Positions 8,200-48,615 are shown, numbered from the whole stretch's first letter. The stretch: DNA of 56,862 nt, filler included, from Candidatus Coatesbacteria bacterium (GCA_016927185.1; 3 parts of 3 records of this genome joined end to end with filler, not necessarily neighbours in it), one strand, 5' to 3'. Program-made: numbers and translations. The notes: generated from the letters alone by a model not told the origin.

Positions 8200-9000
8200 C
8201 TAGTATTCTTCTATGTTAAGATATTGCATATCAAGTTCTCCCAGATTGAGTGCTTTTATTGCAATCTCAGAAAAACTGTAATCAACATCCGAAAGATAGA
8301 ATTCGTGCATGCCTTTTTCAGAATTGTCCTTGCCTGAAAGCCTTATTTCATTTGCAATCAGAGAAACTTCTCTTGCTGTTTCTATTGCGCTGTCAACAAT
8401 AAGCACTTGATTTCCAAGCACTTCAGTTATCACTGGTTTCAGCAGGGGATAATGTGTGCATGCAAGAACTAATGTGTCTATCTTTGCGCGCTTGAAAACA
8501 TCAAGATATTCCCTGGCAACAAGCTTTGTTACTGGATGGTTCAAGAATCCTTCCTCAACAAGAGGGACGAAAAGAGGACATGGTTTTACAACTATTGTTG
8601 CTCTTGGCTTCAGTCTTGTCAATGCTTCCTGATAGGCACCTGATTTTATTGTTCCTATTGTCCCGATTATTCCAATTATTGCATCCTTGCTTACTCCAAG
8701 AGCGGATTTTACTCCGGGAGCAATAACATCAATTATTGGTATAGAGAAACTTGATTTCAGAAGTGACAATGCGTATGCAGATGCAGTATTGCATGCAATG
8801 ACAAGCATATCAATATTCTTTGAAATTAGAAATCTGGTGTTCTGTTCAGCAAATTTCTGAATGGTCTTTTGGGATTTCGGTCCATAAGGAACTCTTGCGG
8901 TATCTCCAAAATAGATAAGCTGGGCATCTGGAAGCTCATTAATAATTGCAGCAGCAACAGTCAAGCCTCCCAGTCCTGAATCAAAGATGCCGATTCGCAC
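8200..9000 (-). CDS. murI: Glutamate racemase
   Basis: IGIFDSGLGGLTV, GDTARVPYG, IACNTASA, LACTHYP. Confidence 0.97.
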   Translation of the reverse strand: MRIGIFDSGLGGLTVAAAIINELPDAQLIYFGDTARVPYGPKSQKTIQKFAEQNTRFLISKNIDMLVIACNTASAYALSLLKSSFSIPIIDVIAPGVKSALGVSKDAIIGIIGTIGTIKSGAYQEALTRLKPRATIVVKPCPLFVPLVEEGFLNHPVTKLVAREYLDVFKRAKIDTLVLACTHYPLLKPVITEVLGNQVLIVDSAIETAREVSLIANEIRLSGKDNSEKGMHEFYLSDVDYSFSEIAIKALNLGELDMQYLNIEEY

Positions 9001-9584: not shown

Positions 9585-11399
9585 ATGAAGTTATTTTATT
9601 GTCTTATTAGTGTCTTGATTATCTCTTCCCTGCTTTCTGCAAGAAGCTACTCTGATTTTGTTGGATATTCGCTTGGTACGCATGGACATACGTCAAGAAG
9701 CAAGGAAGATAATGCATGGAAGGATAAAAGGGGAGGCAATATATTCAATCAGAAGGATCAGAATGTAGAATGGGCAAAAAGCATGGGAATGAACTGGCAG
9801 AGAGTATTGATAAGGACTTCATATTATTTTGACGAAAACGGGAATCCTGCTGAAGGAGAATGGAAAATTCTTTTTGACTGGCTTAATAAATACAAAACAA
9901 GGAATCTCCTCTGGATAATTGAAAAGAACAAGAATTTCATGGACAGGGTATTCTCTAAACCTGGCTTCCCTGGCAACTGGGAAAAAGGTGTATACAATCT
10001 TCTCTGCAAGTTTGCTGCTGATTCTTCTACAAATCAATATGGTATTGAATTCATAGAACTTGAAAATGAACTTAATGGCATGGGTTCTTTTTACAGGAAC
10101 AGGAAACTGGAAGGAGATGAGCATTATCTCAAGAAGTATTCACAGTTACTGATTGCCTTTCATAATGCCATAAAAAGATATAACAGCGATTTCCCACAAA
10201 AAAAGAGAATAGGCATATCTCCTTTTGCAACGATGTGGTGCGAGGCAGATTATCTGAGAAATTTTCTCAGGCAGACTGTAAAATGGGGAGATAATTATGC
10301 ATTGATAACAAATCAGGAAAGAAGATTTGATTTTCTGTCAGTGCATTTATACAGGGAATCATGTTTTCATGATGCAGATTTCAGTACAAAATGGATTCAT
10401 TCGAATACAAGATCTTATGCTCCTGATGAATATCACGTATGCAGGAGTCCAGGGAATTTCTATTACAGATTGCATCATGGAACAATCATAGATGATGTGA
10501 AGGAAATGCTGCTTGCAGTAAAACAGGTAGAGGATGATCAGGGCTGCAAACTTGAACCATTGAAAGTAATGATAACTGAGATTGGCTGGATTTCTCCATG
10601 GTACAAGGATAAGGAGGAATTTATCAATTCCCCAAAGAATTTCGAAGTACAGCCGGGTTCCTCCAGATTGTTCATACCTAATTATTTACAGGCAATGTAT
10701 CTTGCAAAATCAATTGAAATGCTTTATTATGAAAGACATCCTTATGACAGCAGTCAGTTCATGGTAGACAGGATATTCTTGTTTCCATTCATGGATTCCC
10801 ATGGTACTATCTGGAAATCCCAGGGAGTTGCAAGCAACACTCCATGGATAGGGACGCAATCGTTTTTCGCAATAAACAGGAGTCCATGGCACAGAGAGGA
10901 TGATCCAAGACATGATAAGAATTTTGCTCCTGCCCCTTTCAAGGGACCTGTTCATAAAAACGCTTTCTATACTATTGCAAATTCAGGGGAAATTACATTT
11001 GACTGTTCAAAAGGAAGCTTTCATAAGGAAGGACTTTCTACAGGTTTGTATCTTGGTCAAAGCAATGCGGATCAGAGATTTACAGCCATCCTGAAAACAT
11101 CAGGGAAGCCATACAGGATTTTCATGACTATCGAATGTCACAGGGTAGTGCATTTCCAGGAAGGAAAGACTGATGATTTCATAGATATGGAGGAACCTGA
11201 GATAAGGAATGACAGACCAGTTATATCTGTGGAGCTTTTCAATGAGAAAAAGGAAATTGTACTTTCTGAGTTCTGCAATAAGAGAAAAGGACTGACTTTT
11301 GAAATAAAAGGTGATTCTGAAATAGTAATGAAATCAGAACTTGGTAATCTGAGGGGTATTGGATTTGATATAAGTATTTCAGCAATAGAGGAAAAATGA
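9585..11399 (+). CDS. Secreted putative clan GH-A glycoside hydrolase (family unassigned)
   Basis: Signal peptide from ATG 9585. IELENELN (acid/base-like), FDFLSVHLY, VMITEIGW (nucleophile-like). Confidence 0.6.
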   Translation: MKLFYCLISVLIISSLLSARSYSDFVGYSLGTHGHTSRSKEDNAWKDKRGGNIFNQKDQNVEWAKSMGMNWQRVLIRTSYYFDENGNPAEGEWKILFDWLNKYKTRNLLWIIEKNKNFMDRVFSKPGFPGNWEKGVYNLLCKFAADSSTNQYGIEFIELENELNGMGSFYRNRKLEGDEHYLKKYSQLLIAFHNAIKRYNSDFPQKKRIGISPFATMWCEADYLRNFLRQTVKWGDNYALITNQERRFDFLSVHLYRESCFHDADFSTKWIHSNTRSYAPDEYHVCRSPGNFYYRLHHGTIIDDVKEMLLAVKQVEDDQGCKLEPLKVMITEIGWISPWYKDKEEFINSPKNFEVQPGSSRLFIPNYLQAMYLAKSIEMLYYERHPYDSSQFMVDRIFLFPFMDSHGTIWKSQGVASNTPWIGTQSFFAINRSPWHREDDPRHDKNFAPAPFKGPVHKNAFYTIANSGEITFDCSKGSFHKEGLSTGLYLGQSNADQRFTAILKTSGKPYRIFMTIECHRVVHFQEGKTDDFIDMEEPEIRNDRPVISVELFNEKKEIVLSEFCNKRKGLTFEIKGDSEIVMKSELGNLRGIGFDISISAIEEK

Positions 11400-43859: not shown

Positions 43860-46114
43860 ACCAGCCTGTTCAACAGAATATTTCACAACCTTTTGAACAA
43901 CCAAATATCTGGCAATATCTGGCAATTATTTACAGGCATCTATGGGTAGTCATTCTGGTTTTCATCTCAGTTCTTTCCCTCACTTTGTACAGAAATTATA
44001 AGGCTATTCCCATTTATGAAGCTGAATCAACAGTACTTCTCGAAGCCTCATCACCTAATTTATTTAACAGCCAGTTTACTACCTCTTATTATACGATGTA
44101 TTTGAGTCAGAGATATCTGCTCCAGAATCAGATGCTTTTTTTGAGAAGCTATCAAATGGCTCAGCTTGTTGCAAAGGAATTCGGGAAAAACGAGCTGGCA
44201 ATTGCCTTGAAACCGTACAAGGGAATGAATCTTACAGAAGAAGAGAGATTGAAGATATTATCAATAATGGTTAAAAGCTCACTCGTTGTTTCACAAGATC
44301 CTCAATCAGATTTCCTTCACATTACAATAAGATTCACTGATCCCAAAATTGCGACTTTCATTGCCAATACCTATGCAGAAGTTTTCCAGAGAGAGGATCT
44401 TTCATATAAAAGAAGCACTATGAAAGCCATGAAGGAATTTGTGGCAGAGCAGCTGAACTTCACGAAGAAACAGCTTGATGATGCTGAGGATCAGTTGAAA
44501 GCATACAAGATGAGCAACAATGTTGTATATCTTGATGCAGAAGGCCAGAGAATAATTTCGAATATCGGTGATCTTGAAAAAATGTACTTCGATGCAAACA
44601 GCCAGTATCAAGGTGTAATAAAACAGATTGGTTATTATGAATCTGAGATAAGGAAAGAAAAACTTGGATTTGTTCCGAAACTTGAGAATATTTCTTCCCC
44701 AATGATCACGCAGCTCAGAAACAAGATGGTTGAGCTTGAAATGGCAAAAACAGGGCTTGAAGAAAAGGGATACAAAGATAATCATCCAAAACTCAAGGAA
44801 ATAAATTTACGTATAGGCAAGACTTCCAGGCAGCTTGTTGATGCACTTGAAGAAGTACTGACGAAGGAGCATTTTACTGACCCCCAGTCCACGCTAAGTG
44901 AATACATCAAGACATTGATTCCTCTTGAAGTCCAGAGAAGCGGTCTTGATGCAAGGAAAAAAGTCCTGAAAAACGCTGTAAATAACTATAATAGCAAGCT
45001 TCTGGGATTTCCACAGAAAGAGATAAACCTTGCAAGACTTGTCCGGGACAGAGCAATAGCTGAGAAGATTTATATCATGCTCAAGGAACAGTATCAGACT
45101 ATAAGAATTACTGAGGCAGGAGAGCTAAGCAGGGTAAGAATAATAGATTTTGCCAAGGAACCAACAGCACCTATTCTTCCACAAAAAAGAAGAGATCTTT
45201 TTATCGGGATAATAATGGGACTGGTTCTGGGATTTGTTATGTCCTTCTTCCTTGAATATCTTGATGACAGGATAAGAAGTCCAGAGGAGCTTCAACGATT
45301 CACGGGACTCTCTATCCTGGGAGTCATACCATTGATATCAAGCGACAGGAAAGTCCAGAGAGGGAGCAAGCACGAGCTCAGCTCTATTGAAGAAAGACTT
45401 GTCACTCATTATGATCCAAAGAGCCCTACTGCTGAAGCATACAGATCTCTCAGGACAAGCATTATGTTTTCAAGAGCAGGCAAGACAATAAAGACTATTC
45501 TTATAACAAGTAGCGGCCCGCGCGAAGGAAAATCAACAACTGCAGCAAATCTTGCAATCACGATGTCTCAGATGGGCTCAAAAACGCTGCTTATAGACAG
45601 TGATCTAAGAAGACCGATTTTGCATTCACTTTTCGGGATGAACAAGGAACCAGGGCTTACCAATCATATTCTAGGAGGGATACCACTTGAGGAATCTGCA
45701 AGGAAAACCTCTATTGATAACCTGTTTGTAATGCCTGCTGGTACTATGCCACCTAATCCCTCAGAAATATTGAGTTCCCAAATCATAGATGATTTCATAG
45801 ATAAGTCTACAAAGTATTTTGATGTTCTTGTTTTTGATTCTCCTCCTATTATTGCGGTTACAGATCCTATTGTTCTTGGCTTGAAGGTTGATGGTGTCTG
45901 TCTTGTTGTTGATGGGTATAGTGTGAAGAGAGCAATAGTGAAAAGGGCAATCGACAATATAATGAAGATGAATCTTCCAATTCTTGGAGCAATTTTCAAC
46001 AAACTGGATTTCCAGAAAAGATATGGTTATTACGGTTATTACAATTATTACTATTATTATTATTCTGGAGAAGGCAAGCGCAGCCAATCGAAAAGAAAAC
46101 GGACTAAAAGTTGA
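43856..46114 (+). CDS. wzc: Polysaccharide co-polymerase / tyrosine autokinase (Wzc family)
   Basis: Two TMs, AEAYRSLRT, Walker A GPREGKST, IDSDLRRP, FDSPP, C-terminal Tyr cluster YGYYGYYNYYYYYY. Confidence 0.92.
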   Translation: MNQPVQQNISQPFEQPNIWQYLAIIYRHLWVVILVFISVLSLTLYRNYKAIPIYEAESTVLLEASSPNLFNSQFTTSYYTMYLSQRYLLQNQMLFLRSYQMAQLVAKEFGKNELAIALKPYKGMNLTEEERLKILSIMVKSSLVVSQDPQSDFLHITIRFTDPKIATFIANTYAEVFQREDLSYKRSTMKAMKEFVAEQLNFTKKQLDDAEDQLKAYKMSNNVVYLDAEGQRIISNIGDLEKMYFDANSQYQGVIKQIGYYESEIRKEKLGFVPKLENISSPMITQLRNKMVELEMAKTGLEEKGYKDNHPKLKEINLRIGKTSRQLVDALEEVLTKEHFTDPQSTLSEYIKTLIPLEVQRSGLDARKKVLKNAVNNYNSKLLGFPQKEINLARLVRDRAIAEKIYIMLKEQYQTIRITEAGELSRVRIIDFAKEPTAPILPQKRRDLFIGIIMGLVLGFVMSFFLEYLDDRIRSPEELQRFTGLSILGVIPLISSDRKVQRGSKHELSSIEERLVTHYDPKSPTAEAYRSLRTSIMFSRAGKTIKTILITSSGPREGKSTTAANLAITMSQMGSKTLLIDSDLRRPILHSLFGMNKEPGLTNHILGGIPLEESARKTSIDNLFVMPAGTMPPNPSEILSSQIIDDFIDKSTKYFDVLVFDSPPIIAVTDPIVLGLKVDGVCLVVDGYSVKRAIVKRAIDNIMKMNLPILGAIFNKLDFQKRYGYYGYYNYYYYYYSGEGKRSQSKRKRTKS

Positions 46115-47151
46115 GAATACAATTAATAGTCGGTTTAATTATCAGCATTCTATTTCTTTACATCTCATTAAATGGAGTTCAGCTTGACAAACTGCTTATT
46201 CTTATCAAGAGCTCACATTGGGAATATATTCCGATATTAGTTATTGTTGTTTTGTTGGGATTCCTTATAAGATCCGTAAGGTGGTTTTACCTGCTTCGTT
46301 CAATAAAGGAAATAAGGATAAGGAAACTTCTGTCTTTTGAGCTTATAGGTTATGCAGTAAGTAATATTTATCCTGCAAGACTGGGTGAATTCGTAAGAGC
46401 TTATCTTCTTGGAAAACATGAAGGTATATCCGGCTCAAGCGCTCTTGCATCAATTGTAATTGAGAGAGTTCTTGATGGAATAATGGTCTTGTTTTTGTTT
46501 ACGCTGATATTGACATTTTTCAAGCTTCCCAGTGGAGTAGATAGAATAAACATAAAATTCCTGGGACATATTTCACTTCCTCAATTAGGAATACTGGCTT
46601 TATCATTTTATATTCTTGTTATTTCATTTCTGGTTCTTGCATATATAAACAAACCAAAAGCACTGAAAATAATAGAATTTTCATCCAGATTCCTGCCCCA
46701 GAAGATATACCAGAAGGTATCTGATTTCATGGGCAAGTTCATTGATGGGCTTTCAGTGATAAAAGAACCCTTTAATATTCTTAAGGCACTGTTCTATACT
46801 CTATTATTATGGATTGTTGTTATCTATTCTGCAGAACTGACATTTTATCTCATGCCGGGTGATTTTTCTTCGGGATTGCCATTTTATGCATCAGCTCTTG
46901 TTACCATTCTTGTTGCATTGATACTCATGGTTCCAGCAGCACCGGGTAATATAGGAACACTTCAATATGGCTGCATAATTTCTCTTGCAATATTCAGGAT
47001 AGACAAGACAGAGGCATTCGGATTTTCAATATTATTTCACGGTCTTCAATATTTTATTGTCACAATTTCAGGTTTATTCTATCTCTGGCAATATGGTTTG
47101 TCTTTGAAGAGACTGATAAAAGAAAGAAAGGAAAAAGACGGGAGTGAATAG
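46111..47151 (+). CDS. Lysylphosphatidylglycerol synthase TM-domain / flippase-like membrane protein
   Basis: IRSVRW, PARLGEFVRAY, IERVLD, PAAPGNIG. Confidence 0.85.
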   Translation: MRIQLIVGLIISILFLYISLNGVQLDKLLILIKSSHWEYIPILVIVVLLGFLIRSVRWFYLLRSIKEIRIRKLLSFELIGYAVSNIYPARLGEFVRAYLLGKHEGISGSSALASIVIERVLDGIMVLFLFTLILTFFKLPSGVDRINIKFLGHISLPQLGILALSFYILVISFLVLAYINKPKALKIIEFSSRFLPQKIYQKVSDFMGKFIDGLSVIKEPFNILKALFYTLLLWIVVIYSAELTFYLMPGDFSSGLPFYASALVTILVALILMVPAAPGNIGTLQYGCIISLAIFRIDKTEAFGFSILFHGLQYFIVTISGLFYLWQYGLSLKRLIKERKEKDGSE

Positions 47152-47237
47152 GTCCTGGTGGGTCTCCTGGGCTTCAAACTCAGTGCTGGATATGTTTTCA
47201 TATTCAGGGTGGGTTCAATTCCCACACGCTCCCGCCA
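47140..47237 (+). tRNA. selC: tRNA-Sec(TCA)
   Basis: 98 nt. Extended acceptor stem GGGAGTG/CGCTCCC, 6-bp D stem AGGTCC-TGGT-GGGTCT, anticodon loop CT-TCA-AA, long variable arm CTGGATATG-TTTT-CATATTCAG, T arm GTGGG-TTCAATT-CCCAC, G73-CCA. Confidence 0.93.
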
Positions 47238-47244
47238 AATAGAC

Positions 47245-47391
47245 ATGAAGAAAAGTATATTGATATTAGTCCAGATCCTTGTCTTGGTCGTTTCGCTAGC
47301 AGGAATTATAGTTGGATATAGAATGGATGAGGCAGTAAAAGTCCTTAATAATGCAATAATGCTCTGACTTACCTGCATAGGAATCGGTTGA
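47245..47391 (+). CDS. Putative 48-aa membrane selenoprotein (UxxC variant of the small CD1871A-like CxxC proteins)
   Basis: MKKSILILVQILVLVVSLAGIIVGYRMDEAVKVLNNAIML-UGA(47365-47367)-LTCIGIG-stop. Hairpin 12 nt after the UGA. Directly behind selC. Confidence 0.8.
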
Positions 47392-47403
47392 TTCCATTTT
47401 TTT
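47380..47403 (+). promoter_or_regulatory. Candidate bacterial SECIS hairpin overlapping an intrinsic terminator
   Basis: GGAATC-GGTT-GATTCC starting 12 nt after the in-frame UGA, followed by A and a T7 run. Confidence 0.6.
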
Positions 47404-47535
47404 GTTGACAAAAAATCAGGGTCTAATAAGTTAGCAATAAATCTTTAAAATGATTTAAGGGGAGGTGAACAAAAGCAAATTCTGGCATTTCCAATATAAA
47501 TCTGGATTTTTTTAACATATAAAAAAGGAGGCATA

Positions 47536-48615
47536 ATGAAAGTTTTGTTGTTTTTAATTCTCTTAGTCGGCACAGCTGGACTAATAGCAGAAGAAGTTGG
47601 TGACCGCGTAGCATCATATCCCTTACCAGCTGGATATATGGAAGAACAGCAGATATCAGGTTTAGCTGTTGTCAAAGGCAAGATATATGTTACTAACCTG
47701 ACAACACATTATATTGTTATGGGTGATGTTAACACAGGAACATGGGAAAAATCATGGCTTTTCACCCAGGATATATATACCTATGGAATGAGTGTAAGTA
47801 ATAGTGCAGATACTATGGCATTGGTTGGAAATGAAACCAAGCAGTTATTTCTTCTTGATCTGAATAGTGATGATCTTGATATCCTTGGTTCAGTATTGCT
47901 GGATGAAAGTGTAGTCCAGGAAACAAATCCACCATATCTCACAGGCGTTCTTTATATAACATATAATAGCAATTACAGAGTACTTGTTGTTGACAGAGAT
48001 AACCTAAAACTTTATGAGGTTGATCCAATAGCTCTTGAATATAAAGGCAAGACTAATGCACCTGCAGATATCGCATATGCATACTGGTTGCGTGGACTTG
48101 GCTATGATAAAGATGTAAATTGTATTCTCTTTGCAATTTCCTGTTTTAATGAAGAACTGCTTCTAGACAGTTCAATGGTATCAGCTTATGATCCCGCAAC
48201 ATGGGCAAGAAAAACTGAACTTGCCGGGGACGGACATTTTCTGCCATTCTGCTCAATTGATACACTTGGACAAGGAAACTGGTTTGATGGCGTATACACA
48301 TATATGAATATCAGAGGTATTGCTTATATCAATGATTTCACAAGCAGTCAGACAGAATGGAAAAAAGTCTATCCTGCAGCTGGAATGGAAAATCCAGGAG
48401 TATGTCCACAAGCAGTTTGGATGTATCTTTCATTTGGATTTGACAGCATCAAAAAGACAACCTGGGGTGGCATCAAGAAGATGTATGGAGAAGGTGTCAG
48501 TTTCAGCAGGAAACCAGGCTCTGCTAAATTAGGCAAAACAGCTATCAGAGATATCAAGGCAAGCAAAGTTGGAAAATCAAGATTGATACTTCCAAAACGT
48601 TCTAACCTGAGATAA
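47536..48615 (+). CDS. Secreted hypothetical beta-propeller-like protein with TWGxIK motif
   Basis: AAGGAGG RBS, signal peptide, beta-rich body, KTTWGGIKKMY then a basic tail. Confidence 0.7.
   Translation: MKVLLFLILLVGTAGLIAEEVGDRVASYPLPAGYMEEQQISGLAVVKGKIYVTNLTTHYIVMGDVNTGTWEKSWLFTQDIYTYGMSVSNSADTMALVGNETKQLFLLDLNSDDLDILGSVLLDESVVQETNPPYLTGVLYITYNSNYRVLVVDRDNLKLYEVDPIALEYKGKTNAPADIAYAYWLRGLGYDKDVNCILFAISCFNEELLLDSSMVSAYDPATWARKTELAGDGHFLPFCSIDTLGQGNWFDGVYTYMNIRGIAYINDFTSSQTEWKKVYPAAGMENPGVCPQAVWMYLSFGFDSIKKTTWGGIKKMYGEGVSFSRKPGSAKLGKTAIRDIKASKVGKSRLILPKRSNLR

Follow-up and report, generated by a model that had tools for sequence, protein, structure and literature searches.

The described systems closest to the locus reported here are the catalogued bacterial UxxC selenoproteins, the transmembrane thiol-disulfide reductant transporters of the DsbD/CcdA type and the modular electron conduits built on NapH-like proteins. 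DsbD/CcdA passes electrons, in other bacteria, from a cytoplasmic or membrane donor to extracytoplasmic thioredoxins of the TlpA/ResA type. The minimal SECIS of Escherichia coli fdhF, a selenocysteine (Sec) insertion element, is a 17-nt hairpin 11 nt past the UGA with the loop GGUC. According to PMC13188914, the bacterial SECIS model specifies a loop of 3-9 nt with a G in the first two loop positions, a UGA-to-loop distance of 16-37 nt and a minimum free energy (MFE) of -7.5 kcal/mol or lower; Table 1 of the same work (2026) gives model accessions for 119 selenoprotein families and subfamilies. In PMC8238504, NapH-like proteins (PF12801) are presented as conduits for electrons that are modular in build and work together with flavinylated modules.

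The family that concerns us here, CD1871A (NF040920), is absent from that Table 1, by way of which alone the families of Haft and Tolstoy 2025 enter our comparison. The name CD1871A is without mention in the roughly 8.4 million full texts searched, and the papers listed for CD1871/CD1872 are unrelated. The accessible text of Haft and Gwadz 2022 (bioRxiv) contains neither '1871' nor NF040920, and the main text of BSepDB makes no mention of the microprotein family.

The window, by which we mean the whole stretch of 56,862 nt analyzed, consists of joined pieces of different contigs and includes 176 N; only positions 19670-48857 correspond to contig C102, on which the window features described below are located. 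The genome of the window comprises 109 contigs, is 93% complete and alone represents its phylum among the species representatives covered. Within C102, a gene encoding a flippase-like/LPG_synthase_TM membrane protein (46111..47151, + strand; PF03706, 158.6 bits; TIGR00374, 96.3 bits) overlaps, with its last 12 bases, the 5' end of the tRNA-Sec gene selC (47140..47237, +). This tRNA, with anticodon TCA and an encoded CCA end, was located by ARAGORN and scores 68.3 bits against Rfam RF01852 (gathering score 47). Its CCA is followed after 7 nt by the ATG (47245-47247) of a microprotein gene of 48 codons plus stop (47245..47391, +), delimited by translation, NF040920, the family consensus and relatives. 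Forty codons precede an in-frame TGA at 47365..47367 (+), beyond which the frame continues with LTCIGIG and reaches a second TGA, the true stop, at 47389..47391 (+). With Sec at the first TGA, the product reads MKKSILILVQILVLVVSLAGIIVGYRMDEAVKVLNNAIMLULTCIGIG, an N-terminal transmembrane (TM) helix joined to a C-terminal U-x-x-C-I-G-I-G. Residues 4-24 are strongly hydrophobic, 19-residue Kyte-Doolittle windows rising to 3.14 (residues 5-23).

The gene is single-copy in its genome. The next gene (47536-48615, +; 359 aa) is an ORF whose product begins like a signal peptide; it is preceded by a strong Shine-Dalgarno sequence, AAGGAGG, and is without Pfam or NCBIfam match. Within it, positions 47600-47708 are replaced in an 88% identical relative by a diverged sequence of the same length. 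On the opposite strand, an antisense 110-codon TTG ORF (47079-47411, -) spans the tRNA-Sec and the microprotein gene; the substitutions seen in relatives fit the + strand frame.

Tools of gene annotation pass over this gene. The public record holds a 69-aa ORF that begins inside the tRNA and ends at the TGA, and the homologue of the cultured Johnsonella ignava is filed, by NCBI and other sources, as a 43-aa 'hypothetical protein.' A first-pass annotation of the window, made from its sequence, had described the ATG 7 nt past the CCA, the 40-codon TM ORF, the TGA at 47365 and the LTCIGIG behind it, all of which ARAGORN, translation and hydropathy reproduce, and it had foreseen that gene callers would truncate or miss the gene. 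It had also taken TGA to be an ordinary stop elsewhere in the window, and the count agrees: TGA closes 10 of the 32 window ORFs of at least 250 aa. Code reassignment was accordingly discarded, given this count, a microprotein that itself stops at TGA, at the stop position of its family, and the presence of the Sec machinery.

With Cys written for Sec, the microprotein matches NF040920 over the entire profile (positions 1-38 of 38) at 34.6 bits (E 1.2e-8; cut-off 32), and no other NCBIfam model at E up to 10; a six-frame search with the stop read through reaches 26.2 bits, under the cut-off. A Pfam scan yields only a chance-level EpuA match and no DsbD_TM, and a word-based protein search with the 48-aa product returns nothing except the window's own mis-called 69-aa ORF. 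TsoA (LULAXC, NF045695) was weighed for its L-U-L and rejected, there being no NCBIfam match to it and the spacing being U-x-x-C rather than U-x-x-x-C.

A search with NF040920 of 60 comparison genomes, kin to the genome of the window at domain level only, gave four Cys homologues together with many chance matches. A profile made from the window protein and these four homologues was then run against 1.84 billion representatives and returned 1097 proteins at E up to 0.001, of which the best 149, the window's own ORF excluded, define the family consensus used here. In every one of these best 149 representatives a C-x-x-C is followed by [IMVT]-G-[ILVM]-x, and in 141 of them the stop comes one residue later, the position it holds in the window. 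Cys occupies the position of the window's TGA in 149/149. All eight positions past the TGA in the window, stop included, match this consensus; the window carries the commonest or second commonest residue at -8, -7, -5, -4, -1, +1, +4, +5, +6 and +7, with the stop at +8. A single N-terminal TM helix with a positive N-terminus is a further feature of the family that the window microprotein shares. The family and its C-terminal motif had been named in the first-pass annotation, which had placed the UGA at the first Cys of the CxxC and expected the residues behind it to be conserved; on each of these points it was right.

Set beside NF040920, then, the microprotein has the same length class, the N-terminal TM helix, the V-x-x-[KN]-A-x-x-[ILV] motif and the C-terminal x-x-C-I-G-I-G-stop, and it differs in that its first Cys is encoded by TGA as Sec. 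Compared with the catalogued UxxC selenoproteins, TsoA among them, it has in common the substitution of Sec for the first Cys of a redox pair, the existence of Cys homologues and a SECIS after the UGA, and its local L-U-L resembles the name of the TsoA motif; in contrast to them, it is a 48-aa membrane peptide and not a thioredoxin fold.

The Sec form recurs well outside the genome of the window. A degenerate DNA pattern, V/I..[KN]A..x-TGA-[LF]x-C-I-G-x, was applied to one genome per species (185,579 species) and gave 37 matches against about 7 estimated by chance; 32 of the 37 are clear members of the family, each having a TM helix, a TGA where the family has Cys and the family's stop position. 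The other five (L040, L050, L059, L068 and L072) were dismissed as not belonging to it. The same pattern in metagenome contigs gave 109 matches, 5 of them clearly not family (so that about 104 are). Judged by record titles, carriers of the Sec form include Cloacimonadota, Poribacteria, many 'Deltaproteobacteria' metagenome-assembled genomes (MAGs), Clostridium tepidiprofundi, Johnsonella ignava and a Lachnospiraceae MAG. It is nonetheless a minority form: TGA occurs in 0 of 400 other genomes from the phylum of C. tepidiprofundi (63 carriers) and in 7 of the 14 carriers in the sample around a Cloacimonadota MAG, and one Poribacteria genome carries both a Cys copy and a Sec copy. Among the Sec forms, the amino acids of the tail are conserved and its codons differ from lineage to lineage.

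The first-pass annotation had asked for selA, selB and selD elsewhere in the genome, and all are found in addition to the tRNA-Sec. Profile matches reach 342 bits for selA, 334.6 bits for selB and 327 bits for selD, the last containing one in-frame TGA. The selA match (L002, on contig C83 of the same genome) covers model positions 55-451 only, with 2 TGA and 1 TAG flagged within it; as the intact ORF has 383 aa, the N-terminal part is missing, diverged or frameshifted.

A candidate SECIS hairpin, GGAAUC-GGUU-GAUUCC (47380..47395, +), lies across the end of the gene and was evaluated by folding, a terminator scan, a comparative test and the bacterial SECIS rules in the available portion of PMC13188914. 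It begins 12 nt past the TGA. The codons for G-I form its 5' arm, the last Gly codon and the initial U of the stop make up the loop, and what remains of the stop pairs, together with four UTR bases, as the 3' arm. With a GGUU loop, a 6-bp stem, a TGA-to-loop spacing of 18 nt and -7.5 kcal/mol in a 48-nt context, it passes the SECIS model at the border; by itself it amounts to -6.0 kcal/mol, and a 71-nt fold of the window is no better than its shuffles (z -0.89). The window hairpin being weak alone, its standing depends on comparison with relatives.

For that comparison, we applied the loop and spacing rules to all family loci collected, which comprise 94 distinct Sec forms (141 loci) and 39 Cys forms. 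A qualifying SECIS-type hairpin is present in 94/94 Sec forms, 17-23 nt past the TGA, with a median of -7.4 kcal/mol and 87% at or below -5 kcal/mol. The Cys forms have a qualifying hairpin in 17 of 39 cases and none in 22; the best of them is -4.7 kcal/mol, so that 0/39 lie at or below -5, and hairpins of that stability are confined to the TGA forms. The check for a SECIS that the first-pass annotation had recommended thus comes out in its favor, if only narrowly for the window hairpin taken by itself.

The Sec forms use 41 different hairpin sequences, with compensatory pairs, on a common plan in which G-[IVL] codons supply the 5' arm, the last Gly codon and the first stop base the loop, and the remaining stop bases and UTR bases the 3' arm. 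In the window's register, 3 of the 6 pairs have changes on both sides, and covariation links the last position of the Ile/Val codon to the middle base of the stop (C-G with UGA, U-A with UAA). When a single register is imposed on 85 distinct, unselected 40-mers, 74.5% of cells are paired as compared to 65.6% after shuffling, a level that 0 of 500 shuffles reach; the figure is lowered because other lineages use shifted registers. A C-terminal Gly ends 79 of 85 distinct Sec-form sequences, as expected if the Gly codon gives the G-G of the loop. In L041-L070 and many metagenome loci ('Deltaproteobacteria' MAGs), the 3' arm covers the stop and the four bases before the start of the gene that follows, a NapH-like partner treated below; SelB binding or melting of the hairpin could therefore affect translation of the NapH-like protein.

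Relative to the E. coli fdhF element, the window hairpin is similarly short, lies at a near-equal distance (12 nt) and shares the G-G-U of the loop. It departs from that element in straddling the stop codon and the 3' UTR, a consequence of Sec standing only eight codons from the end, and in being followed by a U-run like that of an intrinsic terminator. This tail, a run of seven T (47397..47403, +) separated from the hairpin by one A, is evident in the sequence and was picked up by a consensus terminator scan (6 pairs, 3 G-C, tail ATTTTTTTGT), which reports one site where 0.5 are expected. From its sequence, it is plausible that the hairpin and U-run of the window also act as an intrinsic terminator. 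Within 47397-47416, the U-run can in addition fold onto an A-run that follows it (UUUUUUU-GUUG-ACAAAAAA), which gives another weak hairpin straight after the first, and relatives in three sequencing runs carry one extra T in the U-run.

These observations bear on whether the TGA at 47365 is simply a stop, in a decayed copy or a 40-residue protein, with the conservation downstream of it owed to the terminator hairpin only. One base change turns TGC or TGT into TGA, gene callers do read a stop, and the window hairpin looks terminator-like. Yet the tail is kept as amino acids with varied codons and always ends at the family's stop position, a SECIS-type hairpin accompanies every one of the 94 distinct TGA forms and, at -5 kcal/mol or better, no Cys form, the Sec machinery is present, and relatives keep both the TGA and the tail. 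Moreover, in most lineages the partner gene and not a U-run comes straight after the hairpin, which is therefore no terminator there. We consider a plain stop exceedingly improbable. A Sec-containing microprotein of the CD1871A family that gene callers have missed is, by contrast, very probably what the sequence encodes. The hidden 48-aa selenoprotein that the first-pass annotation placed behind the tRNA-Sec accordingly draws its support, at the level of sequence, from the Cys alignment, the tail, the SECIS-type hairpin and the presence of selA, selB and selD. With the function proposed below included, we still think it likely that the locus specifies a real selenoprotein, a 48-residue single-pass membrane protein of this family with a UxxC tail.

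The placement of the gene directly behind selC suggests how it may be expressed. Because the upstream gene overlaps the tRNA-Sec by 12 bases, a promoter of its own for the tRNA would have no space between the two; the sole promoter-like match near the ATG overlaps the microprotein start codon, there is no promoter space between the tRNA and the ATG, and the microprotein ORF is without a Shine-Dalgarno sequence. From the 7-nt gap and this want of a promoter or Shine-Dalgarno sequence of its own, we infer that the microprotein message would be made as a 3' trailer of the selC transcript. SelB carrying Sec-tRNA would then bind the hairpin and insert Sec at UGA 47365, and the same SECIS hairpin, with its U7 tail, would also end the selC transcript.

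Contigs of relatives, drawn from four public runs, are consistent with this arrangement. X2, a DNA contig about 95% identical to the window, spans the end of the upstream gene, the tRNA-Sec, the microprotein ORF and the next gene. X7 and X11, contigs about 88% identical from RNA libraries, span the tRNA-Sec and the microprotein ORF, and in one run the next gene as well. One RNA contig of the 88% relative starts within a base of the tRNA 5' end and another ends about 35 nt past the U-run, though contigs establish neither transcript ends nor a single transcript. From the 7-nt gap and the RNA-library contigs that span both genes in a relative, co-transcription of the microprotein with selC is inferred.

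The relatives at about 95% and about 88% identity keep selC, the ORF, the TGA and the tail. When the listed differences are laid on the window, the 88% relative has lost the ATG and gained a new one at codon 4, and the window microprotein may likewise start three codons further in. Seven of its changed codons are synonymous, and the remaining replacements are of conservative types such as V/I, R/K, D/E and A/T. No difference is listed between codon 34 and the end of the hairpin, a stretch that takes in the TGA and the tail, the list holding the best-supported differences, with 54 less-supported ones left out and up to six from X7 and 27 from X2 unplaceable.

Proximity to selC also invites a regulatory reading, in which the ORF would act chiefly as a leader or trailer and translation through its UGA would sense the supply of Sec-tRNA and tune selC or its neighbors. 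The microprotein indeed sits immediately behind selC, and 15 loci of the Cloacimonadota type, a count that includes some genomes twice, have selC directly upstream of the Sec-form operon, as compared with 0 of 39 Cys-form loci. In those 15 loci, the tRNA-Sec lies 565-630 nt upstream of the TGA and a DsbD_N-like ORF starts about 16 nt past it. Elsewhere the association fails: 123 of the 138 Sec-form loci outside the genome of the window have no tRNA-Sec within their flanks (1.5-2 kb). A Cys form of the protein, moreover, exists with the same partner, the sequence is conserved as a membrane protein and not as a leader, and, if the hairpin terminates, nothing downstream on the window transcript is left to regulate. 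The selenium sensor entertained by the first-pass annotation thus finds no support, most members, Sec or Cys, lying away from selC and beside a NapH-like partner, and we judge a mainly regulatory role very unlikely.

For the selenoprotein reading, which we prefer, it is this partner that suggests a function. In family loci with at least 300 nt of flank, counted without dereplication, a gene for a NapH-like membrane protein with Fer4_5 (PF12801), about 290 aa long, immediately follows the microprotein gene at 100 of the 109 Sec loci and 36 of the 39 Cys loci (136 of 148 in all). Its start is often 4 nt after the microprotein stop or overlaps it, which suggests translational coupling and a complex. 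The partner resembles NapH/MauN while scoring far under their cut-offs; invariant Cys motifs are numerous in it, and two motifs for ferredoxin-type clusters are present. The window belongs to the 9 exceptions among the 109 Sec loci. As the first-pass annotation had remarked, no gene for a 4Fe-4S membrane protein is adjacent to the microprotein gene: the next gene has no domain match, and the partner orthologue of this genome (304 aa, 40-42% identical) is on contig C3, between a glycogen-synthase-like and a nitrilase gene. In three loci from Johnsonella and Lachnospiraceae (L053, L073 and L048), the NapH-like gene is found 1.2-2 kb upstream of the microprotein gene and a gene for an Rce1-like CAAX protease behind it, together with a redoxin gene in L048.

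Other neighbors were surveyed in 40 loci (23 Sec, 17 Cys) taken from 55 representatives at no more than 72% identity plus two close relatives. A TlpA/ResA-like redoxin is encoded next door in 15 of the 40, and ResB, CcsA, a DsbD_N-like protein and a multihaem cytochrome also occur. Across the family, net charge is +2.5 on the N side of the helix (about 8 residues) and -0.24 on the C side; given the positive charge of the N side, the positive-inside rule predicts that the C/U-x-x-C tail is outside the membrane.

The distribution of the family was contrasted with that of DsbD_TM (PF02683) in two phylum samples, both centered on genomes chosen as carriers of the Sec form and both counted without regard to relatedness. 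In the phylum of C. tepidiprofundi (401 genomes), DsbD_TM is found in 19 of 63 carriers versus 256 of 338 non-carriers. In that of the Cloacimonadota MAG (151 genomes), the figures are 5 of 14 and 136 of 137, and 9 of the 10 genomes without DsbD_TM are carriers. That family carriers tend to be without DsbD/CcdA suggests a transmembrane electron relay of thiols or selenols. Both kinds of gene can also meet at one locus: in L087 (G145:C61), from a genome of the Cloacimonadota sample, a Sec-form microprotein gene (10924-11043) is preceded on the same strand, at a distance of about 2 kb, by a DsbD_TM gene (8289-8924, within a 549-aa frame).

In the mechanism we propose, the N-terminus of the window microprotein would lie in the cytoplasm and its U-x-x-C tail on the external side of the membrane, as predicted by the positive-inside rule. 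The tail would serve as a redox-active selenylsulfide/dithiol acceptor of the NapH-like membrane polyferredoxin, and together the two would relay electrons, taken from a donor in the cytoplasm or membrane, to extracytoplasmic thioredoxins of the TlpA/ResA type. Judged from relatives, the microprotein could well be the extracytoplasmic acceptor of the NapH-like Fe-S protein and supply thioredoxin-like proteins, a proposal on which we are evenly divided.

The proposed task, the reduction of extracytoplasmic TlpA/ResA/CcmG-type thioredoxins, is that of DsbD/CcdA (PF02683), with which the family shares like neighbors (redoxins, ResB, CcsA, a DsbD_N-like domain) and to which its distribution is complementary. 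The likeness is one of proposed function and context only, there being no sequence relationship, and the path envisaged runs from NapH-like Fe-S clusters to a separate microprotein instead of through the Cys pair of DsbD_TM. The genome of the window has both systems, its CcdA-like gene scoring 47 bits. Since the partner is not adjacent there and this CcdA-like gene is present, the relay may be redundant in this organism or may serve another end.

The same conserved pair can be read in terms of metals, as a real selenoprotein that, instead of relaying electrons to thioredoxin-like proteins, binds or hands over a soft metal, copper or similar, in the service of a metal reductase resembling CcoG. 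CcoG itself reduces cupric ions, a C-terminal CxxC or UxxC is a common metal site, and the partners weakly match models of the CcoG/FixG type (Fer4_18 at 19.9-21.8 bits, TIGR02745 at 19-27 bits). These matches are, however, far under the cut-offs, and NapH/MauN match better. The recurrent neighbors, furthermore, are TlpA/ResA-like redoxins, ResB, CcsA and DsbD_N-like proteins, not metal transporters or chaperones, and the complementary distribution with DsbD_TM in the two phylum samples points to thiol reduction. A metal-handling role therefore appears unlikely.

Returning to thiol reduction, the NapH-like systems in the accessible part of PMC8238504 have in common with ours a polytopic Fe-S membrane protein and an extracytosolic redox module. 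There the module is a flavinylated FMN-binding domain; here it would be a CxxC/UxxC microprotein, translationally coupled to the NapH-like protein in most lineages, and that part of PMC8238504 contains no mention of such a partner. By this analogy, a thiol/selenol microprotein module would be a further version of the modular NapH-like scheme. Tentatively, and with more doubt than confidence, we put forward that the microprotein and the NapH-like polyferredoxin constitute an undescribed Fe-S-driven transmembrane reductase that replaces DsbD/CcdA in many anaerobes, and that in the window its message is a trailer of the tRNA-Sec and its hairpin at once a SECIS and a terminator.

These results add a small, widespread and mis-annotated family to the bacterial selenoproteome, one whose public records are cut short, the RefSeq-type entry of a cultured species among them. 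They also describe a compact SECIS arrangement, in which the stop joins the last Gly codon in the loop and the UTR provides the 3' arm, and which may explain the C-terminal Gly of the Sec forms. The genomic context offers a testable function for an uncharacterized pair of proteins and may explain the source of extracytoplasmic reducing power in bacteria without DsbD/CcdA. The placement behind selC provides a simple model for coupling the expression of a selenoprotein to its tRNA. If the reductase and trailer reading is true, the window would hold a client protein made only together with the tRNA that decodes it.
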